44,042 bases of DNA, taken from IMG/VR virus record IMGVR_UViG_3300012205_000001, positions 1 through 44,042 of that record; one strand, 5' to 3'. The DNA is from a virus. Positions 1-44,042 of the stretch are shown piece by piece. The stretch's first letter is position 1, and each line of letters opens with the position of its first letter. The notes under the pieces are model-generated. The model was not told where the DNA came from and did not search any database. It saw only the letters and a list, made by a program, of their open reading frames with translations. The position numbers were made by a program, and so were the translations under genes.

Positions 1-123
1 CGCTCGATGGAGCGTCCGGCCTCACGCGACCATTGGCCGGTCAATCGTCAGCAGCGGGGCGCCCGGATGGATGATCGCCCCCACCGATCGCGCAGATTGA
101 CCCCACTGCTCGATTTGCGTCTC
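1..123. repeat. Terminal direct repeat; identical copy at 43920..44042 (circular assembly overlap or terminal redundancy)
   Basis: Read directly: the first 123 nt of the window recur exactly as its last 123 nt. The repeat contains the 3' end of the minus-strand peptidase gene. Confidence 0.85.
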
Positions 124-542
124 CAGCCACCGGCGCCAGTCGTCATCACCGCCGGCGGGAAACGACCCAGCTTGCAGCAGATGCAGGACCGCGGGAAGCT
201 CCAGGTGCGGAATCTCGAACGATAGGGCTCGCAGACCGAGGCCGGTTCCGATCTCCTGGTACCGCTGCCACATGCCGGCGTCTGGCTCGGACCACGTCCA
301 GCCGTCGTCGACCTTGAAAACGTAGTCCACCGCCAGCCCGTATTGATGGAAGCTCTCCCAAGCGCGGGCCCGCGTAACGTGCCGGCCCGGCCGACGGCGT
401 AAAGCTCGGCTTGGCGGAACGGTGTGCGGCAGCATTCATAGGGCTGCAGCGGAATGCCGGCCTTATATAATTGCAGGTCGAGCTCGGGCAGTAAACCGCG
501 CAGCGCCGGGTGCAGAGTCAAGGTGCTAGGGTCGCGCGCCAT
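22..542 (-). CDS. Peptidase M15 (VanY / L-Ala-D-Glu peptidase-like) endolysin, apparently split by a frameshift near 360-380
   Basis: Track ORF 22..435 carries SFHQYGLAVDYV (SxHxxGxAxD zinc-binding signature) and FEIPH (ExxH). The N-terminal half RTPFRQAELYAVGRAGT lies in the overlapping frame of ORF 48..620, beginning at the Met at 540-542. The span 22..542 is 521 nt, not a multiple of 3. Confidence 0.6.
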
Positions 543-1243
543 CAGCGCAGCCCACGGCGGTGGGTACGGGATAGCGGATCGGCGGCCTTGCGATCCATGC
601 GGGCCGCCATGTGGTGCCAATTCGGGTCGAGCTCGCGCCCGAAATCGCTGCTGATGAACCCGTCAGGATCGCGGATCAGCCGATAGCCGCCCCCAGTGCG
701 ACTCAAGCAGAATGGCGCATCGACCGTGTCGAGATACGTGTAGGGCCGTGCTGCGCCGGCGACGAACCACGCCGGCAGGACGAAATCCGAGACCCAGATC
801 CGCCGCGTCTCGGATCCGATCGTCACCTCGATGTCGTAGCGGTCCCGCTCGCATGGGTCGCACAATTCGCGCGCCACCTGACGCCCGTCGGGCATCGGCA
901 GCCAGAGGTCGCACCTGGGGTCGGCGCGCAGCTCCAGGGCCTCATGGCTGAGCGTGGTAGCGTCCAGCGGGTCGACTGATGCCAAGACACGGCCGAACGC
1001 GAGGCCAGCCACGTCGTCGTGAAACCCAAGGGCGCCCATTTTGTCGATGTCATCGAGGATCGCCAGCGGCCAGAAGGTCCCCGCCGGCAGCCCGCTGAGC
1101 GTCGCGTAGGACCGCACGGGCCACGGCTCCTCGGCGAAGGCCGGTCCCCAATGCTGCTCCATCTGGATGTTGATGGCCCGCGCCTGGAACGCAAAATCGG
1201 CCGGCGTCAGGAGGCGGCTGCTGGCCTGGCAGGCGATTTCCAT
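542..1243 (-). CDS. Hypothetical protein (233 aa) between lysis membrane proteins and endolysin
   Basis: Track ORF; its stop overlaps the start of the downstream peptidase gene (TGATG) and its start overlaps the upstream stop, suggesting translational coupling. No motif recognised. Confidence 0.45.
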   Translation of the reverse strand: MEIACQASSRLLTPADFAFQARAINIQMEQHWGPAFAEEPWPVRSYATLSGLPAGTFWPLAILDDIDKMGALGFHDDVAGLAFGRVLASVDPLDATTLSHEALELRADPRCDLWLPMPDGRQVARELCDPCERDRYDIEVTIGSETRRIWVSDFVLPAWFVAGAARPYTYLDTVDAPFCLSRTGGGYRLIRDPDGFISSDFGRELDPNWHHMAARMDRKAADPLSRTHRRGLR

Positions 1244-1848
1244 CAGGGCAACTGATGGGTCGAGAGCCAGATTTCGGCATGATCGATCTTGAGCTGCGCG
1301 AGCCCATCCTCAGCGGCGAACGACTTGTCCTGGATCGCTTCGCCACGCAGCTGCGCGACCGCCTTGTTGACGACGCAGAGGCTGTATTTGATCGCCAGCG
1401 CTTCGAGCTGCGCGACGTAGTCCTTGACGACCAGCGCGGTTTCGACCGCAGGAAGGATCCCGGGCGACACCGCCTTCGCGCAATCGACGACGACGGGCGT
1501 CACATGGGCGCAGGAGGCCAGCGTCAGGAAGGTGATGATATACAGCTTTGCAAATAGTTGCATGATGAATCCTTTCACTCGGCTTCCAACGCGAGACGTA
1601 GTTCGTTCCACGTGTCTGGATCCGGTGATCGCCCACGCGACGCTGCGTAGCCGTTCCTCGACATCGAGGAGGGCGGCGGCCCGTCCTTCCGGGTCCAGTC
1701 CATCCGCACGGCGCGCAATCTCCAGCAGCGTGCATGTGATTCCACCAAATTGACGGGCATAGGCGTGGATGACGTCATACTCTGCCGACCTCCCATCATG
1801 ATGCGGAACCGGATCGCGAGACGGCGTAGAATGGTCATCATCGACCAC
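1243..1848 (-). CDS. Hypothetical protein; C-terminal part (from internal Met near 1563) has a lipoprotein-type signal peptide, possible outer-membrane lysis lipoprotein (o-spanin-like)
   Basis: Internal sequence MQLFAKLYIITFLTLASCAHV is a hydrophobic stretch ending in lipobox L-A-S-C, preceded by an AAAGGA-like RBS. Track ORF starts at GTG 1848. May be two genes (1564..1848 and 1243..1563). Confidence 0.4.
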   Translation of the reverse strand: MVDDDHSTPSRDPVPHHDGRSAEYDVIHAYARQFGGITCTLLEIARRADGLDPEGRAAALLDVEERLRSVAWAITGSRHVERTTSRVGSRVKGFIMQLFAKLYIITFLTLASCAHVTPVVVDCAKAVSPGILPAVETALVVKDYVAQLEALAIKYSLCVVNKAVAQLRGEAIQDKSFAAEDGLAQLKIDHAEIWLSTHQLP

Positions 1849-2100
1849 TGGCGCCTCTCGGTGGCGTGATCGCCTTCAGCACGGCAATCTCCTCCCCGTG
1901 TGTCCCCAGTCGCGCCATCGCATGGGCCAGCGTCGCGGCCAGGGCGGCATCACCCTCCTTCGACTCGCGTCGCATCTCGGTCACCTCGTTCTTGAGGCTC
2001 GTGAGCTCGGTCTCGAAGCGACCCCATATCCTCGCCAGCGCGAGGCCATAGATGATGAAACCGGCACCGGTCGAAAAGGCACCGATGTCGGCAATCGTCA
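1838..2100 (-). CDS. Small membrane protein: N-terminal TM helix plus coiled-coil region (holin/antiholin or i-spanin-like)
   Basis: From internal ATG: MTIADIGAFSTGAGFIIYGLALARIW, then charged helical ELTSLKNEVTEMRRESKEGD. The track ORF 1838..2290 extends upstream from a TTG with an Arg-rich, implausible N-terminus. Confidence 0.4.
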
Positions 2101-2283
2101 TGGCGACGTCACAACCGATGTCTTGGCCACCGCGCGGACCGACGGGCTGAGCGCCAGCGCGGCGCCGCCTATGGCCTGACAAAGGATGATGAGCCATGTC
2201 GGCGCTCCGCCCGCCACGGTGGCGATGGCGACCGATTGAGCGGCGCCGCCCAGGGCCAACATGATGCGATCGAAAGGTCCCAT
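2098..2283 (-). CDS. Small two-TM membrane protein, holin-like (61 aa)
   Basis: MGPFDRIMLALGGAAQSVAIATVAGGAPTWLIILCQAIGGAALALSP: two hydrophobic segments and a short polar C-terminus. Stop overlaps the ATG of the next membrane protein. Confidence 0.4.
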   Translation of the reverse strand: MGPFDRIMLALGGAAQSVAIATVAGGAPTWLIILCQAIGGAALALSPSVRAVAKTSVVTSP

Positions 2284-2286
2284 GAT

Positions 2287-2532
2287 TCAATCTCCTTTGT
2301 GGCTGCGAATCACGAGCGTCCGTTCATCGAGTATAGCGATGTTCTTTGCGCAATGGGTGACACGCTTTTCAAGCTCATCCATATCGCTCTCGATTTTCGT
2401 CAGACGCGTCTCTGAGGCCTCAAGATGGGACGTCGATCGACCATCACGCCAAACCCGCATCAGGACCATGACGGCGAAATTGGCGAGGAGTCCCACGACA
2501 GCGACGACTGCGGTGATGCCCTCCCAGTGCAT
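2287..2532 (-). CDS. Small membrane protein with N-terminal TM helix and coiled-coil (lysis-associated)
   Basis: MHWEGITAVVAVVGLLANFAVMVLMRVW then charged ETRLTKIESDMDELEKR. First gene of the small-membrane-protein run, downstream of motif copy D. Confidence 0.45.
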   Translation of the reverse strand: MHWEGITAVVAVVGLLANFAVMVLMRVWRDGRSTSHLEASETRLTKIESDMDELEKRVTHCAKNIAILDERTLVIRSHKGD

Positions 2533-2545: not shown

Positions 2546-2577
2546 CGTCACCTGCCAGCAAAGCTGGGTCCTGTCAC
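2546..2577 (-). promoter_or_regulatory. Copy D of conserved 32-bp bipartite motif (GTGACA-N17-CAGGTGACG on minus strand) upstream of the lysis cassette
   Basis: Read directly; same length and spacing as copies at 6812..6843, 25473..25504 and 27706..27737. Confidence 0.4.
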
Positions 2578-4601
2578 GCGGTGAAGCTATCGGAGCGCCA
2601 GCGCACCAGAAAGCGCGTCTCCCATATTTCCCCACGCCGAAAAGTCGCCGCGCGGGTGCAGCCCTGGTAACGCACTTCGCTAATCCCACTCGTCGGCCAG
2701 GCGTAGCTGTCGGGGCGCTCCAGCACATCGCTGAATCGCTGCCCATCGCCCAGCGCATCGCGCATGACGGATTGCCGGTCACCGCCCCCCGCGTCGCCGC
2801 CGCCGCGCTGATACGCGACCCGAATGACGATCGTCGCCTCCCAATAGGCCTCCCCGATGGCCCGATTGCGCATCACGGGCGTGATGGCTTCGACGTCGGT
2901 GAAATAGTCGCCGTCCATCTTGCTGAGCGGCTCTTTGTCGAGTGTGAATCTGCAGCCGGACCGCAAACCGCCATCCGTAGAACTGGCCGACATGACAGCC
3001 GCCAGGCGGGCATCGATCTGAGTCAAGACGGCCGACAGGGGACAGAAGCGATTGTTGGTGGGCCCCGGCGTCACGCCGCCGCTGGTTGTGACGATCCCTG
3101 GACTGGCGGTCAGCCCGACGCCGCTGAGCGCCACCGCAAGCGACGGAACGATGCTGCCGGCCGCTGCGGTCGCGGCTGCGCCCGAGACGGCGACCGCTGT
3201 GCCGAACTGCAGGGTGCCGGCCAACGCGCTAGCCGCGTTGCCGGTGAGCGCCAGGGCCATCGCCAGTGCCACGCTGCCGACCCCGGCGGTCGCATTGCTC
3301 CCGACCGCCGGTACGTCGGTGGATGGCGTGACCGAGCCCGCCGAGGCAGTCGCCGCCTGGCCGGATAGTGCCACGGTGACATCCGAGCCGGCCGCGACCG
3401 TCGCGGCCCAATTGAGGGGGAAACGCGGCCGCCCGCCGATGGCCTGGGGTCGGCCGGGCCCGCGCAGAATAAACGGTACCGCTGCCGTGCGGCTGTCGGA
3501 GAGCAGGATCTGCGACCCAACATTACCGGCCGCCGTAGTGGCGGCCGCGCCCGTCAATGCGACATCGATGGCCGGCACCACCGTGCCGGCCGATACGGTC
3601 GCCCCCACGCCCGAGACCGGAACGGCCGTCGATGGTATGACGGTTCCGGCAGCGGCGGTTGACGCCTGGCCGGTCGCGGGGACATCGATCGCAATCGTGA
3701 CCGACCCTGCCGCCGTCGTGGCGGCCGAGCCCGTCAGTGCGACTGTGACGTCGCCCCCCGTCGGACTGGTCCATGTCAGGGGCTTAGCCGACGGCCCCAG
3801 GATGGGCATCGGCTTGCCGGGGCCACGCAGCAGGAAAGGTACCGCCATGGTGCGGGTGTCGAAGCCGGTGACCGGCGCGAAGAGATAGTTTTTTCGCGTC
3901 ATGGCCCGCATCAGGCGCGGCTTGGCGAGCGTCACATTTGGAACCGTCCGGATGATCGGTGCCCGCTCGCGAATGCTCAGGGTGCCGGTGTTGACGCCGA
4001 GGCCAGCGACCAGATCAACGCCGTTCAGATCATTGAGCGGATCGAGGAGGAGTGCATCATCACGGCGAATCTTGGTGAAGTCGGCGCCCCGGGCCAGCGC
4101 ATCGATCTCGTCCGGCCTGAGGCAGGTTCTCCACCAGCCGAATTGCTCTAACCAACAATCGGTCGTCGCGATCGTTGCATCAGTCCGCATCCAGAGCCGG
4201 ATATTGCTGGTCGTCGTCTGGCTGAAAGTACCGACCGGCGAACTGCTGGCCTGCTGTCGCCCGTCGATGTAGACGCGCATTGCCAGTGCGGCGCCGTCGT
4301 AGACCTGACAGACATGGATCCAATTCTTGTTCGTCCACTGAGCGGTCGTTGCCACCACCTGGCTACCGCTGCCGGTGATGACTTGCGCGCGGACGAGGTT
4401 GAATGCGCTGGCCGAGGGCGTGCCGACTGTAAAATCACCACTGACCGTCCCAACTCCGCGAGCGATGAATGCCCACTGAGCGACCGGCGTTATCTGAGGC
4501 TGGACCCAGATAGAGAGCGTATGGGACGTCGAGATGTCGAAGCGCCCATTGTTCGCATATTCGCGAAAGTTGGAACCGGAGGCGCCATTGTAGAGCGACA
4601 C
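2574..4601 (-). CDS. Tail fibre / receptor-binding protein: N-terminal LamG-like jellyroll domain, internally duplicated Ala/Thr/Gly/Val-rich shaft, C-terminal ~130-aa domain paralogous to gene 18515..19000
   Basis: N-terminus NKNWIHVCQVYDGAALAMRVYIDG resembles the LamG/concanavalin-like core. Two ~100-aa segments both begin AVPF(L/I)LRGPG. C-terminus aligns with the 18515 protein (FxLDKEP, VAYxRGGGDA, EVRYQG, GEIWExRF, WRSD). Starts at GTG. Confidence 0.6.
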   Translation of the reverse strand: MSLYNGASGSNFREYANNGRFDISTSHTLSIWVQPQITPVAQWAFIARGVGTVSGDFTVGTPSASAFNLVRAQVITGSGSQVVATTAQWTNKNWIHVCQVYDGAALAMRVYIDGRQQASSSPVGTFSQTTTSNIRLWMRTDATIATTDCWLEQFGWWRTCLRPDEIDALARGADFTKIRRDDALLLDPLNDLNGVDLVAGLGVNTGTLSIRERAPIIRTVPNVTLAKPRLMRAMTRKNYLFAPVTGFDTRTMAVPFLLRGPGKPMPILGPSAKPLTWTSPTGGDVTVALTGSAATTAAGSVTIAIDVPATGQASTAAAGTVIPSTAVPVSGVGATVSAGTVVPAIDVALTGAAATTAAGNVGSQILLSDSRTAAVPFILRGPGRPQAIGGRPRFPLNWAATVAAGSDVTVALSGQAATASAGSVTPSTDVPAVGSNATAGVGSVALAMALALTGNAASALAGTLQFGTAVAVSGAAATAAAGSIVPSLAVALSGVGLTASPGIVTTSGGVTPGPTNNRFCPLSAVLTQIDARLAAVMSASSTDGGLRSGCRFTLDKEPLSKMDGDYFTDVEAITPVMRNRAIGEAYWEATIVIRVAYQRGGGDAGGGDRQSVMRDALGDGQRFSDVLERPDSYAWPTSGISEVRYQGCTRAATFRRGEIWETRFLVRWRSDSFTA

Positions 4602-4613
4602 GCGCTCTCCCGC

Positions 4614-5090
4614 CTATTGCGCTTCCGGGTTATTCCCGATCCAGCGAAGCCAATGATTGGAACCGGTCGTATCGGTATTGACGGCAGTGTCATGATAGAA
4701 CATGACGCCGAAGCTGGGGCCGGGGTTCACGATGAACGCCTCGACATAAACCACGTCGCCCGTCGCTGGCGATGCCAGATTGCGCGCTACACCGATGAAT
4801 TCCGCATTGGCGCGTGTCAGCGCGCCGGCGGTCGCGGCGGCATTATCCGATCGGTGGGCCGTCCCGCCAGCATCACCGCGAATAGCATAGAGATAGAAGC
4901 CTTTGTTGCCGGTCGGTGAAGTGCCCTGCTTGAATTTTCCAAAGACGTGAATCAGAGAGTAACGCGTCACTGAATTATCGACCATGTCCGACTGTTGGCC
5001 AGCAAACGTCGTCGATGATGCGATATTCGCGATGGTGATCGTGAAGGCCGCGGATGCGGAGTATGTATCGAGGATGGCTGATTTTGCCAT
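4614..5090 (-). CDS. Hypothetical tail/fibre-associated protein (158 aa); same frame as the downstream fibre, separated by one TAG
   Basis: Track ORF. Both ORF starts are congruent mod 3, and only 4 sense codons lie between the TAG at 4614-4616 and the GTG at 4599-4601. Confidence 0.45.
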   Translation of the reverse strand: MAKSAILDTYSASAAFTITIANIASSTTFAGQQSDMVDNSVTRYSLIHVFGKFKQGTSPTGNKGFYLYAIRGDAGGTAHRSDNAAATAGALTRANAEFIGVARNLASPATGDVVYVEAFIVNPGPSFGVMFYHDTAVNTDTTGSNHWLRWIGNNPEAQ

Positions 5091-5534
5091 TTAGGTCGGC
5101 ACCCCCGTCGCGCGGCCCATGTCCCAAGTCGTAATCACAGTCCCGGTGCCGAATAAGATTTCGGCGCGACTCGCCGAGCGGTTGACGAATGCGATCAGAT
5201 TGGCGCGCGTGGTTGGCGCCGTGAGAGACGGAAACATGGCAAGAAAATTGGCCTGGACGGTCGCATTGCTGGCATCGATTTGCATGCAGGCCACATAAGA
5301 CATAAAAAGATTCTGGTTCGGTATTGATAGCAGAACGAACTCAGATTGAACGATTTGATTCATCAGCTGATAGCCGGCAATCACACCGGACCCAATCGTT
5401 TCGCTCGAACCACCGAGCGCGTTGATCAGCGCGACTCGTTGGGCGACGGTCTTGCCCGCATAGCCGAGCAGCTTCGGATCGTTGGTGATCTCGTTGCCGA
5501 GTGCCGTCAGCTGGCCGTTCGTGAGATCAGCCAT
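5091..5534 (-). CDS. Hypothetical tail module protein (147 aa)
   Basis: Track ORF, tightly packed with neighbours on the same strand; no motif recognised. Confidence 0.45.
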   Translation of the reverse strand: MADLTNGQLTALGNEITNDPKLLGYAGKTVAQRVALINALGGSSETIGSGVIAGYQLMNQIVQSEFVLLSIPNQNLFMSYVACMQIDASNATVQANFLAMFPSLTAPTTRANLIAFVNRSASRAEILFGTGTVITTWDMGRATGVPT

Positions 5535-5538
5535 CGCA

Positions 5539-6102
5539 TCAGTTGGGGCTAACGATCCTGAACTGATGGACCAGAATCGAATTGCTGGCGTTCGCGACCG
5601 ACCAGGTGCCGAACAGATCCACGACCGCAGATCCGGTGTTGTCGAAGCCGGTGCCGACGGCGGGGGCGCTGGCCGGGATGAGCAGGACGCCAGAGCCGCC
5701 GGTGCCGGGAACGGGCGAGCCGATGACCGCCTCCGAACTCCAGATTCCGGTATGCATCAGCGTGCAGGCCGTGCCACCGCCCACTGCACGACAGGTCAGG
5801 TCCCAATCGAGTTTCCAGGTCACGTTGGTTTTTGCCACGATGTTGAGCGCAAACGCGCCGCTGGTCGCTACAATGACCGAGCCGAACTTGAGATCGAATG
5901 TGAACGTCCCGGGCGTCGTGACGACCGTCGACATGCGGCCCGCCGCCTGGACCTTCAGCTCTTGGCCAATGGAGGAGAAGAAGCCGGGGAACAGCGTGAA
6001 TTTCGAGCCGGCATGCAGCAGACTGGTCGCCGTCGTGGTATTCGTGAGGGCGGCGCCATCGACCTGCGAGGTCCAGAGCGTTGAAGTGAATCCTTGCGAC
6101 AT
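5539..6102 (-). CDS. Hypothetical tail module protein (187 aa), Thr/Gly/Ser-rich
   Basis: Track ORF with beta-rich, fibre-like composition. Confidence 0.45.
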   Translation of the reverse strand: MSQGFTSTLWTSQVDGAALTNTTTATSLLHAGSKFTLFPGFFSSIGQELKVQAAGRMSTVVTTPGTFTFDLKFGSVIVATSGAFALNIVAKTNVTWKLDWDLTCRAVGGGTACTLMHTGIWSSEAVIGSPVPGTGGSGVLLIPASAPAVGTGFDNTGSAVVDLFGTWSVANASNSILVHQFRIVSPN

Positions 6103-6110
6103 GGGTTCTC

Positions 6111-6569
6111 CTATGCGATGCGAACGAGACCATTCGATGCGTCGTTGACCGGCATCGTGATCGTGAAGGTCCCGGCGGTGATCGTCTGACTGCCGAACGT
6201 GTAGACACCGATGGCCCGATTACTCTGCGTGCTGTTGTAGATCGTCACGCAATCGAACGCGGTCGTCAGCGTCACGGTCGTGTAGACGATGCTCGCGCTT
6301 GGCGTCCAGAATGCCGTTGTGCCGCTCGTCGTCGGCGCAGTTGCGTTCGTGACTGTGACGCCACCGGCCGAATATCCGGTGCCACTGACTTCGTTCGTTG
6401 CGCTGTAGGCCGTCGTCGCAGCGCCCTGGGTACCGGCGGTGGCGACATAGAGTGCCGCCTTCACGGTATCGGCGCCCGTGCCGCCACGCGTGACGGTCGT
6501 GCCCAGCGCGTGGAGTGCGGTCATCGCCTCGGACTTGAACGACGTGCAGATTGCCTGAACATTCGCCAT
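6111..6569 (-). CDS. Hypothetical tail module protein (152 aa), Thr/Ala/Gly-rich
   Basis: Track ORF; composition typical of fibre/baseplate proteins. Confidence 0.45.
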   Translation of the reverse strand: MANVQAICTSFKSEAMTALHALGTTVTRGGTGADTVKAALYVATAGTQGAATTAYSATNEVSGTGYSAGGVTVTNATAPTTSGTTAFWTPSASIVYTTVTLTTAFDCVTIYNSTQSNRAIGVYTFGSQTITAGTFTITMPVNDASNGLVRIA

Positions 6570-6572
6570 CGG

Positions 6573-6806
6573 TCAGCCCCCTACGGTCCCGGTCAATGCC
6601 GCCGCCAGCTGGCCGGCCTGCTTGAGCACCACATGAGCCGACCGGTGGACGATGAGATCACTACCCGGCAGCCGATACTCGACCCAATTCGTCAACTCGT
6701 TGTCGTTTTCGACCTGGCCCGTCAGCTTGACCAGCATCTCCTCGGGCACAGCGCACAACACGACGCCGCCGGGCTCCGGAGCGTCGAATTCATTCGGCTG
6801 ACCCAT
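6573..6806 (-). CDS. Hypothetical small protein (77 aa)
   Basis: Track ORF; ATG at 6804-6806 sits 5 nt downstream of motif copy A, whose AGGTGA serves as the Shine-Dalgarno. Confidence 0.4.
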   Translation of the reverse strand: MGQPNEFDAPEPGGVVLCAVPEEMLVKLTGQVENDNELTNWVEYRLPGSDLIVHRSAHVVLKQAGQLAAALTGTVGG

Positions 6807-6811
6807 ATAAG

Positions 6812-6843
6812 GGTCACCTGCCCAAGTCGAGACGGCCTGTCAA
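6812..6843 (-). promoter_or_regulatory. Copy A of conserved 32-bp bipartite motif (TTGACA-N17-CAGGTGACC on minus strand)
   Basis: TTGACAGGCCGTCTCGACTTGGGCAGGTGACC on the minus strand; 24 of 32 positions identical to copy B, including CGACTTGGGCAGGTGACC. Confidence 0.45.
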
Positions 6844-6994
6844 CAGCACTGAACGGCAGGTCAGCTTGCGGGAATTTTCGGGAGGTGCGAACGTTTCAGA
6901 TGCAGATCAGCTCCCGGCCTCATGAACCGTGGGTGGCGCTGGCGTCCCCGGCGCTGGGTCTGCCTAACCAGGGGACGGATGAAGGGACGGCATC

Positions 6995-7384
6995 ATGATG
7001 AAGCAACTCGGATTGATCGGGGTTTTGCTGACTGCTGGCTGCTTCGGCAGCCTGATTCTGATGACGGTCGGATGCGGAACGATTGATGAGCAGCCGACCG
7101 ATGAGAACGGGCAGCCCCTCACCTATTGCCCGCAGGATATCCCGGTGAACGTTTTCTCAGCTGGTGGTTGCCAGAATTGGATTGGCCCGAATCGTCCTCA
7201 ATGGCCAGCCGCCGGCATGAAGAAAGATGGTCGGTTCTGCGCGACGTGCTCATGGTTCACGAAGCCCAGCCCTGAAAATGGATTCACGCCTGGACCGACG
7301 ATTGGAATTGCCGATTGCATGATTGGCGGTCCGGATGCCTATCGTGGCGTACTCTGCGTCGCCTCCTGCGATGAATGTCAGTAG
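6995..7384 (+). CDS. Cys-rich secreted protein or lipoprotein (129 aa), opposite-strand insert (moron-like) in the tail module
   Basis: MMKQLGLIGVLLTAGCFGSLILMTVGCG is a signal-peptide-like N-terminus with Cys after the hydrophobic core; about 10 Cys in the mature part. GAAGGGA RBS before the ATG. Only plus-strand gene within 1-42 kb. Confidence 0.55.
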   Translation: MMKQLGLIGVLLTAGCFGSLILMTVGCGTIDEQPTDENGQPLTYCPQDIPVNVFSAGGCQNWIGPNRPQWPAAGMKKDGRFCATCSWFTKPSPENGFTPGPTIGIADCMIGGPDAYRGVLCVASCDECQ

Positions 7385-8815
7385 CTAGAACGGCGCGCCG
7401 AACGCGATCAGCGTGAAGGCTCCGATTCTGACAGAGTCAGTCGTGCCGTTCGATTTCGCGCAGAGCGCGATCCGGTCATAGGCTGCCCCAGCCCCAGCGT
7501 AGCCGAGAAAATAGGGCGCGCTGGTGAAATTCAGGCTCGCGGTGCTGGAACTCGCGACGTCGGGATACCATTTGAACGTTGCTCCGCTGATGGTCGGCGC
7601 GTTGGTAATGGCCGTCGCGGAGCTGGACATTGAGCCGGCCGAATCGCGGTTCGCCACGCCGATAGTACCGGTGTCCGTCGCGCCGTTCATCGCCGCATAT
7701 ACGAAGACGTAGATCCGTACCTGCGTATAGAGCCCCGCCGCCGAGTATCTCAGCGGCAGCGTGATGGCCGGCAAGCTGGCGGCGAAGCTGGTGCCGCCAG
7801 AGCCATAGGACTGGTCAAAGATGTAGCGGAAGTTGCTCTTGCTCGTCGTGAAGGCGACGTAACCGGTGCCGGTTCCGGGTCCGATCGCCGACCAGCCGAC
7901 CTGACCGCGGCGATATGTCAATGTGTCGACATAGTTGACTCGCATCTTTTGAAGAGTATCGCTTGAGTCGGCGGTCGCTGTGATGGCGACTACTTCGCCG
8001 CCCTGATGAAGCCGCTGCGTCCCGACGTATGGGCTCTTGCCCGCGACGGTGCCGGTCGAATCGATGTAGGCGCCAGTACTCGTCTGATCGATGAGGTCCT
8101 GGGGTTGCTGATAGACCATGCCGGCATATAGGATCGGACCATTCGAAAAGGCACCATTCTCCGGTCCTGAAAAGAATTGCATCTCGGCATTCGGCGCCAC
8201 AAAACCGCGCGCACTGATGATTGTGTCGGTCTGGATATTCGTCGGATATGGAATCTGCGGCATCGTCGTATAATTCAAATAGTTCGCGAACGTCGTATCG
8301 AAATATTTCACGCCCCAGCCCTGATTCGCCTGTTGGTTGAGCGGCGGTGAGGCCCAATGGATTTGCGCGCCTTCGGCCACATTGCCGAAATTACGCCCGC
8401 AATAGACCTGCCGGAACGCGGGCCCATAGTTCGGGTCAGAAGGCAACAGCACATGGCCAGACGTCGTCGAGACGCCGCCGGTGAAGAAGTTGAAGTAAGG
8501 TTTGCCCGAGAAGGCAAGTCGATTAAGGGCATCAGTTTCGCGCTTGATCAGCGACGCGAGTGCCGGCGCGCCGTTCCGACCCTGGGTCCTCAGTGTGTCG
8601 TCGAACAGGATCGGTGCTGCGCTGCCGCCGACCGCAATCGTCGCGCCCTGTGAGCCCGGCGTGATGCCGGTAGATGTGCCGGATCTGCCGCCAGAGCCCG
8701 TGTCGCCGCCCACACCGGATGTCCGGCCCCTGGCGCTGCCTGGGGTTGAGCCCGGCGTACGGATCAGGGCGGGGCCGAAGCGGCGGAGGCGGGGGATCAT
8801 TCGTAGCCGAACCAA
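7385..8815 (-). CDS. Tail fibre-like protein (476 aa) with Gly/Ser/Thr-rich N-terminus
   Basis: Track ORF; N-terminal GDTGSGGRSGTSTGITPGSQG low-complexity stretch, then beta-rich sequence. Its stop abuts the stop of the plus-strand gene (TAGCTA). Confidence 0.5.
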   Translation of the reverse strand: MVRLRMIPRLRRFGPALIRTPGSTPGSARGRTSGVGGDTGSGGRSGTSTGITPGSQGATIAVGGSAAPILFDDTLRTQGRNGAPALASLIKRETDALNRLAFSGKPYFNFFTGGVSTTSGHVLLPSDPNYGPAFRQVYCGRNFGNVAEGAQIHWASPPLNQQANQGWGVKYFDTTFANYLNYTTMPQIPYPTNIQTDTIISARGFVAPNAEMQFFSGPENGAFSNGPILYAGMVYQQPQDLIDQTSTGAYIDSTGTVAGKSPYVGTQRLHQGGEVVAITATADSSDTLQKMRVNYVDTLTYRRGQVGWSAIGPGTGTGYVAFTTSKSNFRYIFDQSYGSGGTSFAASLPAITLPLRYSAAGLYTQVRIYVFVYAAMNGATDTGTIGVANRDSAGSMSSSATAITNAPTISGATFKWYPDVASSSTASLNFTSAPYFLGYAGAGAAYDRIALCAKSNGTTDSVRIGAFTLIAFGAPF

Positions 8816-35290: not shown

Positions 35291-35434
35291 GCGGCGCGCT
35301 CCGCGGGCCGAAGTCGCGTCATCGCGTCGATCTCCACAGTTCCCGCGCCGCCCAGTCGACGAGCCCGGCGAACGCGAGAATCGTGCACGCGCCGACGAAT
35401 AGGAGAGCGAGGAACGGGATGGGGGCGCGGGTGG

Positions 35435-36546: not shown

Positions 36547-36730
36547 CCGTCCCTCTTCTTCCCCTCACCCCGGAGCCCGCCAGGTGGTGGCGGCATCGGG
36601 ATGAAGCGCGGACAATAGCAGTACAGTGCGGGATTGTTAGTCCCATGCCGCTCTAATACCGGCGATACCATCTCGCGTCAATGACCAGTAAAAGTATCAT
36701 GGCGTGCGAACTGATGGCCACAGACGCAGG

Positions 36731-36892
36731 TCACGGCAAATACCTGCGCAGCCACGGCACAGTCGCAATCTCAGACAGGAATGCCGAGAAGGCTGCCACA
36801 ACGTCGGGGCAACTCTCGCGTGCTTGCTTGGCAATGGCGCCCATCACCCAACGGTTCAGCAATAGTTCAGCGACGTTTCGTGGCCGCTTCAT
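36731..36892 (-). CDS. Possible small ORF (53 aa) not in the track
   Basis: By eye: ATG overlapping the stop of 36892..37179 (TGATG), protein-like composition MKRPRNVAELLLNRWVMGAIAKQARES. Below the track length cutoff. Confidence 0.25.
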   Translation of the reverse strand: MKRPRNVAELLLNRWVMGAIAKQARESCPDVVAAFSAFLSEIATVPWLRRYLP

Positions 36893-37179
36893 CACGTCGC
36901 CTCCCTCGCGGCCCGCGCGCGCGCCATCCGGTCATGGTATCGCTTCGCCTCGCGACAGGCGGCTAGATGCTCGCGTGTCAACTGCCGTTGGTGCGCCTCA
37001 CTCTGCGCGCGACCGTGGGCATCGCAAAAGACGCAGACCCAAAGGCGTAGTGGATTGCGGCGGGTCTGCGTGCCGACGGGCGGCGTGAGGCGGATCATCG
37101 CAGCCACCAGTGCAGCCATAGCCCCACCACTACGCCGCCTCCACAACCGGAGCCGAAAAATATCATGGCTCGTAGCCAT
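36892..37179 (-). CDS. Hypothetical protein (95 aa)
   Basis: Track ORF. Confidence 0.35.
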   Translation of the reverse strand: MATSHDIFRLRLWRRRSGGAMAALVAAMIRLTPPVGTQTRRNPLRLWVCVFCDAHGRAQSEAHQRQLTREHLAACREAKRYHDRMARARAAREAT

Positions 37180-37204
37180 GATGGCAGCACGTCTTCATGG
37201 TCAG

Positions 37205-37402
37205 TCATAGCTTCCGGTTCCTGCCTATCTTGCGCGCCGCCCACCAGGCGGCCTTACAGCAGCCAGCGCAGAGCCTCACATCAACAGGGATGTCGCTGTC
37301 TTTCGGCTGCACAACCAATAGCGCCAACCGCGTGTCCGTCTCGCATGCGTGACACCATCCGCTGCGATTGGCGTGACTGCGAGCTGCGACGATGACCCGC
37401 AT
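37205..37402 (-). CDS. Hypothetical Cys-rich small protein (65 aa)
   Basis: CHAC and CAGCC motifs suggest a zinc-binding mini-protein. Confidence 0.35.
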   Translation of the reverse strand: MRVIVAARSHANRSGWCHACETDTRLALLVVQPKDSDIPVDVRLCAGCCKAAWWAARKIGRNRKL

Positions 37403-37618
37403 TCAGTTCACCATCTCTTCGCCGCCACTTTGAATCAGCGCCCGAATCCGCGCAATCAGCAACGATGACGTCTGCGCGGTTAGCAATAGCTTCTGCCTCG
37501 GCGTCTTGCCCGCCAGTAGCGTCGAATATTCGCGCTCGGTTTCCATTACGAGTTGGTGCGCTTGCTCGCGGATGGCCGGCGTGATGACGGCGCAGTCGAT
37601 GCGGATACGGGTTTTCAT
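37403..37618 (-). CDS. Hypothetical small protein (about 71 aa from internal MKTRIRIDCAV)
   Basis: Track ORF 37403..37678; internal Met at 37616-37618 overlaps the stop of the upstream ORF. Confidence 0.35.
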   Translation of the reverse strand: MKTRIRIDCAVITPAIREQAHQLVMETEREYSTLLAGKTPRQKLLLTAQTSSLLIARIRALIQSGGEEMVN

Positions 37619-38211
37619 CGCCGCCACCCGGTCTCGGCATCGGGCAGCAGATCGTACTCGTCGACGGTCGGCCGCCACGGCTCGCGCGCCTGCGTGACGG
37701 CGACGACGGATGGGCCGGCCTCATCTGACATGCGCAATATTCTCCTCTTTTCCGCTTCGGTTAGAAGACGGCTGCGTGTAGTAACGGCCGCTTCCCCTCC
37801 ACGGGCGGCCTCCGTGTCTGCTGAGGCGTTCGCCGCCGGCGGATGAGGCGAGACGAAGTCATGATGTTCTAAGCGATGCGTCGATGCAAGGCGCTGAGTA
37901 TGAATGGTGCAATTGATCATCCTGCACGACCCATGCACCGAATCTGTGCGCTTCCATCCACATGCGCATTCATCCTCGGGTGACACCGGCGCTGGCGCGA
38001 GGACAGGCTCTATTAGCTCCGTCTCGATCAACTCGGCGTATGTGTGCTCATGCTGATTCTCGATGCGCGTTGCACCGTCATGGCAGCAGTTTCCAAAGAC
38101 GAGCGCGGTCTTCTTGTCAATTGATTGGATCTGGAATGAATGAGCGAAGACGATGTTTCGCCCATCAGGGCGAAAGCGCCGAATCTGCCCGACTTCGAAG
38201 GTGATTGCCAT
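37615..38211 (-). CDS. Hypothetical protein (198 aa)
   Basis: Track ORF starting next to the stop of the Sak4-like gene; Cys/His-containing. Confidence 0.35.
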   Translation of the reverse strand: MAITFEVGQIRRFRPDGRNIVFAHSFQIQSIDKKTALVFGNCCHDGATRIENQHEHTYAELIETELIEPVLAPAPVSPEDECACGWKRTDSVHGSCRMINCTIHTQRLASTHRLEHHDFVSPHPPAANASADTEAARGGEAAVTTRSRLLTEAEKRRILRMSDEAGPSVVAVTQAREPWRPTVDEYDLLPDAETGWRR

Positions 38212-38213
38212 GA

Positions 38214-39212
38214 TCAGTCCTCTCCTGGTTGTCGTTGGTCAACGCCGTCCGCGATGGCGAGAAGCGCGGTCACCACGTTGGCGGCCTGCTGTTCGGTCAG
38301 TTCGGCGCGCGTCTTGACGCCATACTTCGTCCACAACCAATCCTTCGCCAGCGCCGGCCGCCAGCCGAGGCGTTCGATTTCGCGGCCAATCTCTTCGATC
38401 TGTTCGCGGCGCGCCGTCGGCGTATCCGGCAGTGATGCTGACTTTCCGTTGCTGACCGCCGCCCCACCGGCCGCCCAGCGCGCAAGCTGCTCGCCGGTCT
38501 CTTCGCTGAGTGGCGCCGTCTCTTTAAACATGCCGCGGAATTGCCCCGGCAGCTTGATGATTGCCTTCTCGCCCATCTCCTCACTGTGCCATGTCGGTAC
38601 GCCATCGCTGCCAGGATAGAGCAGGCAATTCGCCGTCATCTCATAGACAAATTCCTCGCCCGCAATCGGCATCCAGCCGCGCACCTTCGGCTTCGCGCCG
38701 CTGAGGTCCATCTTCTCTTTCGCGCGAAAACAGAACACGAAATTGATCGGCATCTGAAGAATTGTGTTCAGCAGGCGCCTCCGCTCGGCCTTCGGCTTCT
38801 GCCATCCGCTCATTTGCGCTTTCTCGGGCGGCACGCGCCAGAGCGCCGCGAGTCGCTGCGTCTCGGCGTCGTGCATTTCCAGCACGCCGCCGGGGCCTTC
38901 ATGCTCATGGCTCGCGCTGTCGATGACGATGGTCTGGGCCCCCTTGGCGGCGCAATGTTCAATCGCCGCCAAGTAATCCAGGGGCCCGAAGGGGGCGGCG
39001 AAGGGCAGATGACGGAATTTGAACTTGTCGGCATAGTGCAGCGCGCGACGGGCCTCCGTATCGATGACGTAGATGTCGCCACCGGCAACGCGTTGGATGC
39101 CGGTCGCCAGGCGCAGAGCGGAGAAAGTTTTCCCGGCACTTGAACTTCCAGTCAGGCCGATCAACAGCGGCGTCCGTTCTCTTTTGGCCTGGAAGTCTTC
39201 AAACGCTCGCAT
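38214..39212 (-). CDS. RecA-fold ATPase, Sak4-like (AAA_24-type) recombination protein
   Basis: Walker A LIGLTGSSSAGKTFSAL and hydrophobic strand plus acidic Walker B TIVIDSASHEHEG; size and neighbourhood (nuclease, HNH) typical of phage Sak4-like proteins. Confidence 0.6.
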   Translation of the reverse strand: MRAFEDFQAKRERTPLLIGLTGSSSAGKTFSALRLATGIQRVAGGDIYVIDTEARRALHYADKFKFRHLPFAAPFGPLDYLAAIEHCAAKGAQTIVIDSASHEHEGPGGVLEMHDAETQRLAALWRVPPEKAQMSGWQKPKAERRRLLNTILQMPINFVFCFRAKEKMDLSGAKPKVRGWMPIAGEEFVYEMTANCLLYPGSDGVPTWHSEEMGEKAIIKLPGQFRGMFKETAPLSEETGEQLARWAAGGAAVSNGKSASLPDTPTARREQIEEIGREIERLGWRPALAKDWLWTKYGVKTRAELTEQQAANVVTALLAIADGVDQRQPGED

Positions 39213-39681
39213 GTGCTCTCCTCTTTGTCCACGGCTTCCATGTCAATTCCATACCAGGAATTCCAAGTCCATGACGGCGCATGTGCTCTCCCTGGGTAAT
39301 CACTTCCAGGTTTGCCGGGGAATTGTTCGACTTGTTTCCATCGCGATGATGAACGATCTCGCCAGCGAGAAGCTTCCGCCCGAGCATCTCTTCGGCAACT
39401 ACCCTGTGTTCGTGTCGGCCCATGCGTTTTACATATCCGTCGCCCCGTCCACGTCCGCGTTGCAAGTCGCCACGTTGGGCGGCGCTCACCCGCGCCCGTC
39501 TGCACATCTCTGCGCTTCCGATAGAATGATGCCAAATGCACGACTTCGAACAGAACTTAGCCACTGGTTTGCGAGTAACAAACCCCCGAGCGCACTGGAT
39601 GCATTCACGCTCCTGGTAAGTGCGACCGTCGTCGCCCTTGAATATCCGGATTACGCGCGCCAGCCTAGAAGGGATGCTCAT
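39199..39681 (-). CDS. HNH endonuclease (likely starts at internal MSIPSRL)
   Basis: EIVHHRDGNKSNNSPANLEVITQGEHMRRHG carries the His-Asn-His catalytic arrangement. Track ORF 39199..39891 has an Arg-rich, implausible N-terminus. Confidence 0.6.
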   Translation of the reverse strand: MSIPSRLARVIRIFKGDDGRTYQERECIQCARGFVTRKPVAKFCSKSCIWHHSIGSAEMCRRARVSAAQRGDLQRGRGRGDGYVKRMGRHEHRVVAEEMLGRKLLAGEIVHHRDGNKSNNSPANLEVITQGEHMRRHGLGIPGMELTWKPWTKRRAHASV

Positions 39682-40489
39682 CGGAGACCTCCATCGCTGC
39701 GATCTGCTGGTCCATCTCCTCGGCGAGCTGCCATGGCTTGGCCTCCAGCGGCGCGGTGTTCTCGTAGCCGGGCCACTGCCGGGACCGCACGCAGGCCGCC
39801 CAACTGGCCTTTGCCCGCTTCCATTTGCGCGCGCCCAACTCACGCAGACTGCCGCCCAGGGACCGGATGTTGACCGCGTGAGGCGGCTCACATTCGACGA
39901 AAATGAACCGCATCTTGACCAGCCCGGCGAGCTCGGGATTGTTCGTTTCGACGCCCTCGACGTAGGCCGCGTGCTGGATATCGGCGCCGTAGGCCACGAT
40001 TGATCGCGTGATCGATTCGTCGCTGGCGTCGTCGCAGGTCTTCAGGTCGTAGATGATCCCATCCGGCATGATCAGGTGGTCCAGCACACCCTTGCATTCG
40101 CAGCCGTCCGATTCCCACACCTGCGTGACCTGACTCTGCCCGCGGAATTCGAGCCCGCGCGCTACGAGTCGATCGCGAATGGCCTGGACGGTCGCAGTCG
40201 CCGCCTCGAATTTATCGACCAGCACCGCAATCCGCCCAGCCGCCTCGGCGGCATCGCGCTGGTCCTTCGCCGCGTTGGTGCGCCAGTCTTTCGCATTGAT
40301 GACTTCGAGCTTGGGACCGCTGCCCAGAAGCATGGCATCGATCAATCGCCCGCGGCGCGTGGCGTCTGTCTGCTCGCCCTCCTCCGCGCCGCCGAGACGA
40401 TGTCGCTGCCACGCATGCAGCGGCGAGCGCCGCAGCAGAATGCTGGCAATCGACGGCGAGAGACGCATTGGTTCCGTTGTTTGATCCAT
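39665..40489 (-). CDS. Putative PD-(D/E)xK-type nuclease (likely starts at internal MDQTTEP)
   Basis: GIIYDLKTCDDAS resembles the D...(D/E)xK core; adjacent to the Sak4-like ATPase, as in phage recombination modules. Track ORF 39665..40798. Confidence 0.4.
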   Translation of the reverse strand: MDQTTEPMRLSPSIASILLRRSPLHAWQRHRLGGAEEGEQTDATRRGRLIDAMLLGSGPKLEVINAKDWRTNAAKDQRDAAEAAGRIAVLVDKFEAATATVQAIRDRLVARGLEFRGQSQVTQVWESDGCECKGVLDHLIMPDGIIYDLKTCDDASDESITRSIVAYGADIQHAAYVEGVETNNPELAGLVKMRFIFVECEPPHAVNIRSLGGSLRELGARKWKRAKASWAACVRSRQWPGYENTAPLEAKPWQLAEEMDQQIAAMEVSDEHPF

Positions 40490-40894: not shown

Positions 40895-41110
40895 TCACGA
40901 TTGCACCCCCATCGCCGCCGGTTGCCACTCGCCCAGGATGATCATGCCCTCCCAAAATAGCGCACATCGCGCGTGGACCCTGGTCCCGGCGACGATCAGC
41001 AGCGCGCCATCGATGTCGGTCAGGCATGCTTCGCAGGTGTCGGGTATGGCGAGTGAGCAAACGCCGCAGCTGGTACCGCAGCAGGACGGGGCGCAGTCAG
41101 CGTAGGTCAT
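40895..41110 (-). CDS. Hypothetical Cys-rich small protein (71 aa)
   Basis: CAPSCCGTSCGVCSLAIPDTCEAC; overlaps 40716..41060 in another frame, so only one is likely real. Confidence 0.3.
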   Translation of the reverse strand: MTYADCAPSCCGTSCGVCSLAIPDTCEACLTDIDGALLIVAGTRVHARCALFWEGMIILGEWQPAAMGVQS

Positions 41111-42273
41111 GTGTCACTCTCCGCCGCGCATGCCTTGATGTCTTCCAACGCCCGTTCATTGCTCGCGAAAAAATGCGGCACGCGGCCGGTGGATGCGCGA
41201 TAGATCATCGTCGCCGCACGCTGCGAATCATACTTCGCCTCCAACTTGGCCCCCGCTTCGCCCGCATGGACTATCGCCCAACCGCCGATACAGTGTGTCA
41301 TTGTGCAAGAGTGCCAGGTAGACATTTCGAGCCGCCCGCCGCCGCCAGTGACAGATTCCAGAATCTTGGCGTCCAGTCTATCAACCACAGGCACGTCCGG
41401 GTTGCGCTCGCGGTATTTCAGCATCCGCGCGCGACGGGCCGCCTTGACTTCTTCGGGCGTCGTCGGGCGGACGTATGGCTTCGCTGGATCTGAGACCGGA
41501 ATGGTTATGCCTATGGCGCCGTCGAGGCTGGCGCCGACGAGGCTGGCGCCGTCGAGGTTGGCGCCGACGAGGCTGGCGCCGTCGAGGTTGGCGCGGCCGA
41601 GGCTGGCGCCGACGAGGCTGGCGCCGACGAGGCTGGCGCCGTCGAGGTTGGCGCCGTCGAGGCTGGCGCCGACGAGGCTGGCGCCGACGAGGCTGGCGCC
41701 GACGAGGCTGGCGCCGTCGAGGTTGGCGCCGACGAGGCTGGCGCCGACGAGGCTGGCGCCGACGAGGCTGGCGCGGCCGAGGCTGGCGCCGTCGAGGTTG
41801 GCGCCGTCGAGGCTGGCGCCGACGAGGCTGGCGCCGACGAGGTTGGCGCCGTCGAGGCTGGCGCCGTCGAGGTTGGCGCCGTCGAGGTTGGCGCCGTCGA
41901 GGTTGGCGCCGTCGAGGCTGGCGCCGACGAGGTTGGCGCCGACGAGGCTGGCGCCGTCGAGGCTGGCGCCGTCGAGGTTGGCGCCGTCGAGGCTGGCGCC
42001 GTCGAGGTTGGCGCGGCCGAGGTTGGCGCGGCCGAGGCTGGCGCCGTCGAGGTTGGCGCCGTCGAGGTTGGCGCCGTCGAGGTTGGCGCCGTCGAGGTTG
42101 GCGCCGTCGAGGTTGGCGCCGTCGAGGTTGGCGCCGTCGAGGTTGGCGCGTTTTCCGCCAACCTCGTCTCTGCGCCACATGTCGTGTAGCCGTCGGACTT
42201 CGGCCAGGTCGGCTGTCGATATCGTGCGTAGTTCCATGGTCACTCCTTGATCAAGTGTGAAATCAGCCGCCAA
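41107..42273 (-). CDS. Pentapeptide-repeat protein (about 43 consecutive A-(N/S)-L-(D/V/G)-(G/R) repeats) with C-terminal globular domain
   Basis: ANLDGANLDGANLDG...ASLVGASLDG tract; pentapeptide-repeat family signature A(D/N)LXX. C-terminal ~130 aa are non-repetitive and Cys/His-containing. Confidence 0.7.
   Translation of the reverse strand: MAADFTLDQGVTMELRTISTADLAEVRRLHDMWRRDEVGGKRANLDGANLDGANLDGANLDGANLDGANLDGANLDGASLGRANLGRANLDGASLDGANLDGASLDGASLVGANLVGASLDGANLDGANLDGANLDGASLDGANLVGASLVGASLDGANLDGASLGRASLVGASLVGASLVGANLDGASLVGASLVGASLVGASLDGANLDGASLVGASLVGASLGRANLDGASLVGANLDGASLVGASLDGAIGITIPVSDPAKPYVRPTTPEEVKAARRARMLKYRERNPDVPVVDRLDAKILESVTGGGGRLEMSTWHSCTMTHCIGGWAIVHAGEAGAKLEAKYDSQRAATMIYRASTGRVPHFFASNERALEDIKACAAESDT
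41510..42150. repeat. 15-bp tandem repeat array (units ggcgccgacgaggct / ggcgccgtcgaggtt and variants) encoding the pentapeptide repeats
   Basis: Read directly; more than 40 consecutive 15-nt units. Confidence 0.85.
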
Positions 42274-42587: not shown

Positions 42588-42883
42588 GATTAGAATGTAT
42601 ACCTCCCGTATAACGGCGTCAACTATTTTTCCAAACTATTTTCGGCACCGAAGATTCGCGTGTGGATCCAGGTCGTTAGGGTGACATTCTCTCGCCACGC
42701 TGATTCACGGATAAAGGCCTCATGTCGCGGGCTGCGGGCCCGGAATGCGATCAGGCCACCGGTCGTCTTGGGACGCGGGGATTTGCGTTTTTGCGGCATA
42801 CCTCATGTATTACCTTTGTCGTTGACATCGTCAAGCGGTCGTGGGACAAAAGAAACATGAAGCTACGGCGAGATAGGTGAGAC
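42588..42883. promoter_or_regulatory. Divergent intergenic control region with A/T-rich stretch and palindrome TTGACatcGTCAA (42822..42834)
   Basis: Lowest-GC non-coding stretch in the window, between the minus-strand early operon and the plus-strand genes. Candidate -35/-10 on the minus strand (TTGACG ... TATACA) and an inverted repeat with a TTGACA half-site. Confidence 0.35.
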
Positions 42884-43063
42884 GTGCTGCCCGATGCTGA
42901 ACGTGAAACTCTGGCCAGGGCCGCAAAAATCCTGGACTCGCTCCGCGAGCGTGCCGCGATCACGCACCACGGGCGCGGAGATTGCGCTTGTCGTAATTGC
43001 GATTGGGCGGCAAAGGTCGCGCTTTTCCTTCGAGCCTTGGCCACGGCCGAACGTCCGGAGTGA
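42884..43063 (+). CDS. Possible small ORF (59 aa, GTG start) not in the track
   Basis: By eye: VLPDAERETLARAAKILDSLRERAAITHHGRGDCACRNCDWAAKVALFLRALATAERPE with a Cys cluster, preceded by AGGTGAG. Just below the track length cutoff. Confidence 0.3.
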   Translation: MLPDAERETLARAAKILDSLRERAAITHHGRGDCACRNCDWAAKVALFLRALATAERPE

Positions 43064-43133
43064 ACCCTAGGCGGACACACACGATGCGCCGCTATGCCGA
43101 AGGGACTTCGGTTCCAGTCGAGAAACGCAATCC

Positions 43134-43502
43134 TTGGGCGCGGATCAGCCGCGCGCCGAATGGCCTCCCAGGCCTGCAGCAAAGGCAGGGGAAGCTGGTC
43201 CGCTGATGGCGTATCAAACCGACGCCACCCAAGCCGCCATCGTCGCCGCGCTCCGCGCTGCAGGATGTAGCGTCTGCCACATTGCGAGCGCCACCGGTCA
43301 GGCCGGCATTCCGGATCTGCTGGTCGGTCGCCGCAGCGTGAACTACCTGCTGGAGGTCAAGGTCCGCGTCGGCAAGCGCAATCCACGGTCAGCCAGTCTG
43401 TCGCCGGGCCAGGTCGAATGGCACCGGAATTGGCGGGGCGCTCCGGTATGGATCGTCACGACGCCAGAAGAGGCGCTCCGGGCGGTCGGGGTGCGGATAT
43501 GA
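43134..43502 (+). CDS. VRR-NUC domain nuclease-like protein (probably starts at MAYQTDATQ near 43206)
   Basis: GIPDLLVGRRSVNYLLEVKVRVGKRNPRSASLSPGQVEW matches the VRR-NUC pattern (G.PDL ... ExK ... Q..W). Confidence 0.5.
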   Translation: MGADQPRAEWPPRPAAKAGEAGPLMAYQTDATQAAIVAALRAAGCSVCHIASATGQAGIPDLLVGRRSVNYLLEVKVRVGKRNPRSASLSPGQVEWHRNWRGAPVWIVTTPEEALRAVGVRI

Positions 43503-43519
43503 GCACGGGTCGGTGAACA

Positions 43520-43705
43520 ATGAAACGCATCTGCACGTTTTGCGGACGGCGATTCAAACCGACCGACGGCATCGTCGGAATCGAGATGACGATCACGACG
43601 CCGACGGGCGAACCCGCGAAATTGATCATCGCCAATGCTCACGACACATGCGCCGTTGTCGCGATGCCGAAGTGGCCCCGGCGTGTCGGGAATGACGTCG
43701 CATGA
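43520..43705 (+). CDS. Hypothetical small protein (61 aa) with Cys pair
   Basis: Track ORF; MKRICTFCGRRF suggests a possible zinc-ribbon N-terminus. Confidence 0.35.
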   Translation: MKRICTFCGRRFKPTDGIVGIEMTITTPTGEPAKLIIANAHDTCAVVAMPKWPRRVGNDVA

Positions 43706-44042
43706 GCAGCCTGGCATGAAAAGCATAGTCCAGCACAGGATTAGCCGGGTCGTCACGCCCGCATGAACCGTCGCTGCGTGTAGCACCAGACCCATCCGGG
43801 ACCAAACGCGCAAAACGCCCACCGCGCTCTCACCATCATCTCGTCAGGTACGATCGGTCCGCCCTTGATCGCATCCTGGCCGCAGTCCTGGCACACGGCC
43901 CGGGTGGCCGCGTCGTCAACGCTCGATGGAGCGTCCGGCCTCACGCGACCATTGGCCGGTCAATCGTCAGCAGCGGGGCGCCCGGATGGATGATCGCCCC
44001 CACCGATCGCGCAGATTGACCCCACTGCTCGATTTGCGTCTC

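Follow-up and report, generated by a model that had tools for sequence, protein, structure and literature searches.

Terminal repeats on metagenomic contigs have been found to accumulate at lengths equal to the k values of the assembler, and assemblers are known to cut a circular template at a random place, leaving a repeat equal to k (PMC8116208). Contigs with such a direct terminal repeat (DTR) are classed as complete by CheckV and IMG/VR. A repeat-unique-repeat form is also found in T7-like phages, with a repeat of about one to two hundred bases. A circular map can likewise be obtained from permuted, redundant DNA, as in Oshimavirus P74-26 and Salmonella phage P22, which are headful phages (PMC12407722). 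Here we describe a stretch of 44,042 bases (62.5% G+C), the whole of IMG/VR record IMGVR_UViG_3300012205_000001 and referred to below as the window, whose first and last 123 bases are identical. With high confidence, it was interpreted as the looped de Bruijn contig of a complete, non-integrated and divergent tailed phage genome, in which the 123 bp are no physical repeat. It resembles the complete 'DTR' contigs of CheckV and IMG/VR in having an exact direct end repeat that matches a common k, viral hallmarks, no host flanks and an arbitrary break. Nothing essential differs from them, and in the window the closure was also verified by a second assembly, a strain variant and a related phage.

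The overlap involves the following features:

1..123, no strand: left overlap copy, made up of the final 33 codons and the stop codon of the peptidase open reading frame (ORF) and 21 nucleotides downstream
43920..44042, no strand: right overlap copy, redundant; trimming it gives a circle of 43,919 bp
22..542, minus strand: M15-type L-Ala-D-Glu peptidase (endolysin), frameshifted, with Peptidase_M15_4 (Pfam) and endolysin PHROG matches on ORF 22-435

The longest exact match between a prefix and a suffix of the window was 123 bases, with the bases beyond it differing on both sides, and a repeat search of the window found this segment in direct orientation at the two ends alone. The chance of an exact match of this length is about 4^-123. 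Both the identity of the ends and the presence of the 3' end of the peptidase gene in the overlap, which had been claimed from the sequence-only reading, were confirmed. The minus-strand ORF 22-435 contributes 102 of the 123 bases, with its TGA stop codon at 24-22; one edge of the repeat is therefore 21 nucleotides past the stop codon and the other is inside the peptidase coding sequence. When one copy is trimmed, 43,919 bp of unique sequence are left.

The two window ends were found to be adjacent in three sources. The first is a contig of the European Nucleotide Archive (ENA), ERZ27253268:k141_1592461 (43,937 bp, MEGAHIT k141), which was found by exact-protein look-ups and carries the peptidase gene 2 kb from one end. 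This contig was rebuilt whole from four overlapping loci and then compared with the 43,919-bp window circle, which showed 0 mismatches. It is rotated by 2.1 kb, starting at window position 41947, and traverses the window from 43919 to 1 with one copy of the 123 bases, while its own ends overlap by 18 bp within the 15-bp tandem array of the pentapeptide-repeat gene. As the ENA contig is the same circle rotated and crosses the junction, each of the two bridges the break of the other: the gap of the ENA contig is covered by the window, and the junction of the window by the ENA contig. A different circle length, from 43,937 - 141 = 44,042 - 246, was also considered, and was ruled out by the rebuilt ENA contig being the 43,919-bp circle with an 18-bp end overlap.

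The second source was obtained by scanning metagenome contigs of the Joint Genome Institute (JGI) with a 36-mer spanning the junction. Contig Ga0137363_10064477 (2,675 bp, 99.5% identical) spans the window from 42024 through 43919 to 170, again with a single copy of the overlap, and from its divergence comes from a different strain and sample. The third is a related mosaic phage, L099 (JGI Ga0577640_0000124, 36,341 bp), which shares modules with the window at 81-92% nucleotide identity. One 1,113-bp alignment with 81% identity runs from window position 862 through the junction to 43737. The equivalent region in L099 is located mid-contig, with about 19.5 kb between it and the end, and is flanked by the peptidase gene on one side and by the endonuclease-like gene and early genes on the other. 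The 234-bp stretch 43503-43736, on the way from the junction to the 3' end of the plus-strand endonuclease-like gene, is missing in L099, with the flanks otherwise collinear.

The adjacency of the two ends is thus shown by three sources and is conserved in evolution. As both window ends join each other, host flanks at the window ends are excluded. The suggestion from the sequence-only reading, a circularly assembled phage genome of about 43.9 kb as opposed to a prophage with host flanks, is therefore supported by the ENA contig, the strain variant and the related phage, all of which cross the junction.

It could be argued that the circle is spurious, either because the 123-bp repeat lies within a larger genome or because two genomes were joined at unrelated ends. 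Metagenome graphs do contain false cycles, and the genome carries two long tandem arrays, which are troublesome for assemblers. However, the 123 bp are confined to the ends of the window, the two other contigs and the related phage show identical flanks around a single copy, the gene set is that of one complete, non-duplicated phage genome with 90% coding density, and the contigs of relatives reach similar sizes of 40-48 kb. A spurious circle is therefore considered extremely improbable.

The two tandem arrays, which are the only other sizeable repeats in the window, and the gene carrying the longer of them are:

41107..42237, minus strand: pentapeptide-repeat protein gene, an early gene, by family match
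41514-42149, inside gene 41107-42237, minus strand: array of 15 bp x 42.4 copies (636 bp), encoding about 42 pentapeptide repeats
35497..35898, inside gene 35435-36331, minus strand: array of 9 bp x 44.6 copies, encoding Ala-rich three-residue repeats on the minus strand

The 15-bp array is a recurrent assembly breakpoint, inside which the contigs of ENA and of L100 and L101 end, and it is much shorter in Ga0137363_10064477. For the 9-bp array, a collagen-like match on the plus strand (Pfam Collagen, E 3e-18, Gly-X-Y) was rejected as an antisense shadow of the Ala-rich gene, with Arg-rich flanks and no start codon.

The 123-bp overlap is almost certainly an assembler artefact marking a closed cycle, with no physical terminal repeat. 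The length of the window, 43,919 + 123 = 44,042, is the expected output of a k-mer assembler for a closed path at k = 123. The MEGAHIT k-list used at JGI is 23,43,63,83,103,123, in which 123 is the last k (PMC6243002, PMC6646334), and fragments of the phage occur in JGI samples. The choice between an artefact and a true terminal repeat, which had been left open by the sequence-only reading, is settled towards the artefact by the agreement of 123 with the final k of JGI MEGAHIT together with the CheckV rule described above. The assembler would have closed a path of 43,919 bp into a cycle, opened this at an arbitrary k-mer and written it out followed by 123 repeated bases. For reads to cover every position in this way, the sequenced DNA must have existed as circles, concatemers or circularly permuted molecules.

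Alternatively, the genome could be linear, with the 123 bp as a real short direct repeat at its termini like that of T7-like phages, and the contig would then show the true ends. The contig does have the repeat-unique-repeat form and a repeat length in the range of those phages, and its break coincides with a natural boundary, that of the lysis genes with the early region. In addition, in two more distant IMG/VR relatives of 47.6 and 48.1 kb, which are different species (L035 and L039), the terminase gene shares its strand with that of the window and is located at almost the same distance from a contig end. Shared physical ends with these relatives were ruled out by walking L035, the one of the two covered by the walk, to its contig end: it breaks off within a g02-like gene and lacks a terminal repeat, so this end is not shared. 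The pentapeptide tandem array is 2 kb away from the window junction, and several contigs of the phage group break within or close to this array, which explains much of the clustering of contig ends in this region.

In contrast to a T7-like repeat, the repeat of the window is exactly equal to an assembler k, and its edges are in or beside coding sequence. Short physical repeats are usually not sited at or inside coding sequence edges like these. The junction is crossed by the k = 141 assembly; as this k is longer than the repeat, reads spanning both flanks were needed. The homologous region is also internal in the L099 contig, the terminase of the window showed no specific affinity to the T7-like group, and none of the solved terminases closest to it belongs to the short-repeat type. 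When the surroundings of the junction were scanned for promoters and terminators, no signal exceeded that of shuffled sequences. Taken together, it is hardly conceivable that the 123 bp are a physical repeat of this type.

Several points weigh against the reading of the window as a looped contig of a complete genome with an artefactual overlap. For the window contig itself, the agreement of 123 with the JGI k-list is circumstantial evidence. The ENA contig is possibly from the same reads, and is independent in method and perhaps not in sample. A linear genome with a real terminal repeat of at least k would also collapse to a cycle, and the 123 bp as a terminal repeat are excluded by arguments of coincidence alone, with a repeat or cos site elsewhere being possible. 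The copy number of the 15-bp array comes from the window alone and, because the array differs between samples, the genome length of 43,919 bp is uncertain and may be off by multiples of 15 bp. The evidence for headful packaging is also weak, since the best tblastn matches of the terminase include T5-like Vibrio phages, at about 25% identity.

The mode of packaging was considered from the following genes:

27242..27700, minus strand: candidate terminase small subunit, by its position and by a C-terminus that weakly resembles the Terminase_2 protein of relative L016
25693..27039, minus strand: terminase large subunit, by phrog_2 and others, with 67 homologues and profile matches to D6E, P74-26 and P22 terminases
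23816..25465, minus strand: portal protein, by phrog_145 (E 2e-46) and a weak SPP1_portal match
22135..23082, minus strand: major capsid protein, by a weak SU10_MCP match, a major head protein PHROG and NCBIfam capsid_maj_Podo (77 bits, just below the cut-off of 80)

The terminase large subunit is about 25% identical to any cultured-phage terminase. With a profile of 37 homologues, it matched the solved terminases of Geobacillus phage D6E and Thermus phage P74-26 and the nuclease domain of P22. Relative L016, with 58% terminase identity, has a Terminase_2 small subunit, to which the candidate in the window shows the C-terminal resemblance listed above. Based on these matches, headful packaging is slightly favoured. 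In that case, virions would hold linear DNA cut from concatemers by the headful mechanism, and the permuted, redundant ends produced by such cutting would by themselves lead to a circular assembly. Compared to P74-26 and P22, the identity of the window terminase is low and at the profile level only, no pac site was identified, and the capsid protein is nearer to an SU10/podovirus-type family.

Another, quite plausible if somewhat less probable explanation is that the genome is complete and the overlap an artefact, but that the virion DNA ends at fixed sites (cos, or a longer terminal repeat located elsewhere) and is not permuted by headful packaging. The matches to T5-like Vibrio phages would agree with this, as T5-like phages carry long terminal repeats. 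Also, any phage passing through concatemers or circles assembles as a cycle (CheckV, PMC8116208). Two weak arguments can be put against fixed ends: the terminase profile is nearest to D6E, the headful P74-26 and the P22 nuclease, and the HNH gene is 12 kb from the terminase and does not adjoin it. In HK97-like cos phages, the HNH gene adjoins the terminase. The true virion ends are not readable from the sequence.

With regard to gene content, the window is the complete genome of an uncultivated, highly divergent Caudoviricetes phage from soil metagenomes. The gene set was taken from the genes called on public contigs that carry this sequence, with their positions transferred to the window, and comprises 59 genes, nearly all on the minus strand. 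Pfam and PHROG scans covered all minus-strand ORFs of at least 180 residues and ten plus-strand ORFs, including all of at least 219 residues. Followed along the minus strand from 43.9 kb to position 22, the genes for early functions and recombination come first, and then those for terminase, portal, capsid, tail and lysis. The terminase large subunit, portal, major capsid protein and tail and lysis genes are present, each once. The family matches agree with the order of early functions, packaging, head, tail and lysis that had been proposed earlier, and also with the proposed lack of host genes and integrase, as no integrase, recombinase, transposase or host gene was found among the ORFs scanned. 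No tRNA and no Rfam family match was found in the window.

The phage is very distant from cultured phages. There was no match by megablast of both window halves against 50,697 phage records or by tblastn of the capsid protein against phages, and the terminase identity is as low as given above. No terminase relative above 37% identity was found in 185,579 species genomes. Distant relatives of the terminase (34-37% identity) were found in metagenome-assembled genomes (MAGs) labelled Deltaproteobacteria or Polyangia, some of them on very large contigs; two distant relatives, L021 and L027, with 34-36% identity, are inside MAG contigs of 204 kb and 1.47 Mb. These distant relatives are probably prophages, and the labels of their MAGs give a hint to the host group. 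One protein match came from a Myxococcales MAG, and the lipobox lipoprotein encoded among the lysis genes suggests that the host has an outer membrane.

The location of distant relatives in such large MAG contigs, and a closed circle that would also fit a plasmid-like prophage, could indicate an integrated prophage or an episomal phage-plasmid in place of a lytic-type phage. However, the ORFs scanned contained no integrase, recombinase, transposase, partition or plasmid replication gene, there is no tRNA and no host flank in any contig, the early region had no match among 72,556 plasmids, and the species genomes contained nothing closer than 37% terminase identity. There was no sign of lysogeny in the window itself. 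A prophage or plasmid state is therefore very unlikely, and the reading as a non-integrated tailed phage is kept.

The early part of the genome contains the replication and recombination genes, which span 32953..40489 on the minus strand, and the two plus-strand genes:

43084..43502, plus strand: 40-residue ORF and 98-residue small endonuclease-like protein, from gene calls, with phrog_93 endonuclease (E 4e-10) and a weak Hjc match
39665-40489, minus strand: PD-(D/E)XK exonuclease VIII-like protein, by family matches
39199-39681, minus strand: HNH endonuclease, by family matches
38214-39212, minus strand: AAA_24 ATPase, by family matches
34268-35290, minus strand: N6/N4 DNA methylase, by family matches
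32953-33306, minus strand: DnaA C-terminal-domain protein, by family matches

The genes at 43084..43502 are the only convincing ones on the plus strand and are convergent with the late operon. ORF 43753-43944, the start of which overlaps the peptidase stop, was regarded as doubtful and was not called by gene callers on any contig. A 578-bp gap without a called gene, 6807-7384, holds the plus-strand ORF 6995-7384 (129 residues), which has a lipoprotein-like signal, many cysteines and no family match, and is uncalled on the public contigs.

Between the early genes and the terminase, a sugar and methyl transfer module is located at 28276..31692 on the minus strand, and a further gene of this kind is found inside the head-tail module:

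30865-31692, minus strand: GT1-like protein, by family match
29423-30856, minus strand: methyltransferase-domain protein, by family match
28276-29082, minus strand: GT2 glycosyltransferase, by family match
20319-21152, minus strand: GT2-like protein, inside the head-tail module, by family match

The glycosyltransferase and methyltransferase genes (28276-31692 and 20319-21152) may serve virion or DNA sugar modification. A similar sugar and methyl block, with an aminotransferase, is present in L016 at 2299-7748.

The head-tail joining genes span 18045..22119 and the tail module 2574..17984, both on the minus strand:

18515-18997, minus strand: 160-residue protein, paralogous to the fibre C-terminus by sequence comparison
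18045-18518, minus strand: tail-completion/Neck1-like protein, with Phage_tail_S, phrog_26 and phrog_1574 reported for the head-tail genes
16332-17984, minus strand: 550-residue candidate major tail protein, by position and size
13220-15205, minus strand: 661-residue tape-measure-like protein, by position and size
9438-12335, minus strand: 965-residue protein of the tail module, from the gene call
2574-4601, minus strand: 675-residue fibre-like protein with a Laminin_G_3 domain

The tail module is mostly without family matches in Pfam, PHROG and NCBIfam, and most of its roles are assigned from position and size. The 160-residue protein aligns over its whole length with the last 157 residues of the fibre-like protein (2574-3047), with 49% identity. 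The domain common to both may be a shared docking domain.

The lysis cassette follows at the end of the late genes, next to the frameshifted peptidase, and its small membrane proteins span 1243..2532 on the minus strand:

2287-2532, minus strand: 81-residue protein with a transmembrane segment and a coiled coil, by sequence features only
2098-2283, minus strand: 61-residue holin-like protein with two hydrophobic segments, by sequence features only
1838-2101, minus strand: 87-residue protein with a transmembrane segment and a coiled coil, by sequence features only
1243-1563, minus strand: 106-residue spanin-like lipoprotein with a LASC lipobox, by sequence features only
542..1243, minus strand: g02, a candidate lysis enzyme; the protein is conserved and uncharacterised, and shows a zincin-like (metalloprotease) fold and an invariant S-H-E-x-x-E helix

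Reading of the peptidase gene begins at 542 and covers 52 codons, after which the gene continues in the frame of ORF 22-435 (137 residues). DNA alignment with P0074, an intact homologue of 178 residues and at least 90% identity that is named CwlK, L-Ala-D-Glu endopeptidase, at JGI, showed that 16 nucleotides are missing in the window near 391/392. The ENA contig shares this deletion, as do fragments from five other assemblies, which align with the window without a gap over the site, indicating that the deletion is real. A variant start of the endolysin, which gene calls on short fragments had hinted at, was ruled out, as the fragments are identical to the window and the real difference is the one seen against P0074. 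A 44,058-bp contig with the same proteins, 16 bases longer than the window, is listed in protein cluster tables.

In L099, the g02 homologue (8340-10001) contains a 324-residue intein, inserted exactly at AREL/C.../CDPCE (the conserved ELC/D site) between two invariant acidic residues. It could be speculated that the phage belongs to a deep uncultivated lineage in which the M15 endolysin has been inactivated by the 16-nucleotide deletion in every sample seen, with g02 cleaving the cell wall, possibly in Myxococcota-like hosts; this combination is, however, rather unlikely. If it is true, g02 would represent a widespread undescribed family of zincin-like HExxE-helix enzymes, which are targeted by inteins in a relative.

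To summarise, the window can be used as one complete phage genome, from which the last 123 bases should be dropped, with features near the ends read across the junction and no host DNA to be accounted for. The terminal repeat is a known trace of k-mer assemblers printing circles, and should not be reported as a biological repeat. A closed contig with such an overlap is ordinary for metagenome-derived viral contigs, while the phage it contains is new and very divergent. It extends what is known of the poorly explored soil virosphere, as genomes recovered from metagenomes routinely do.

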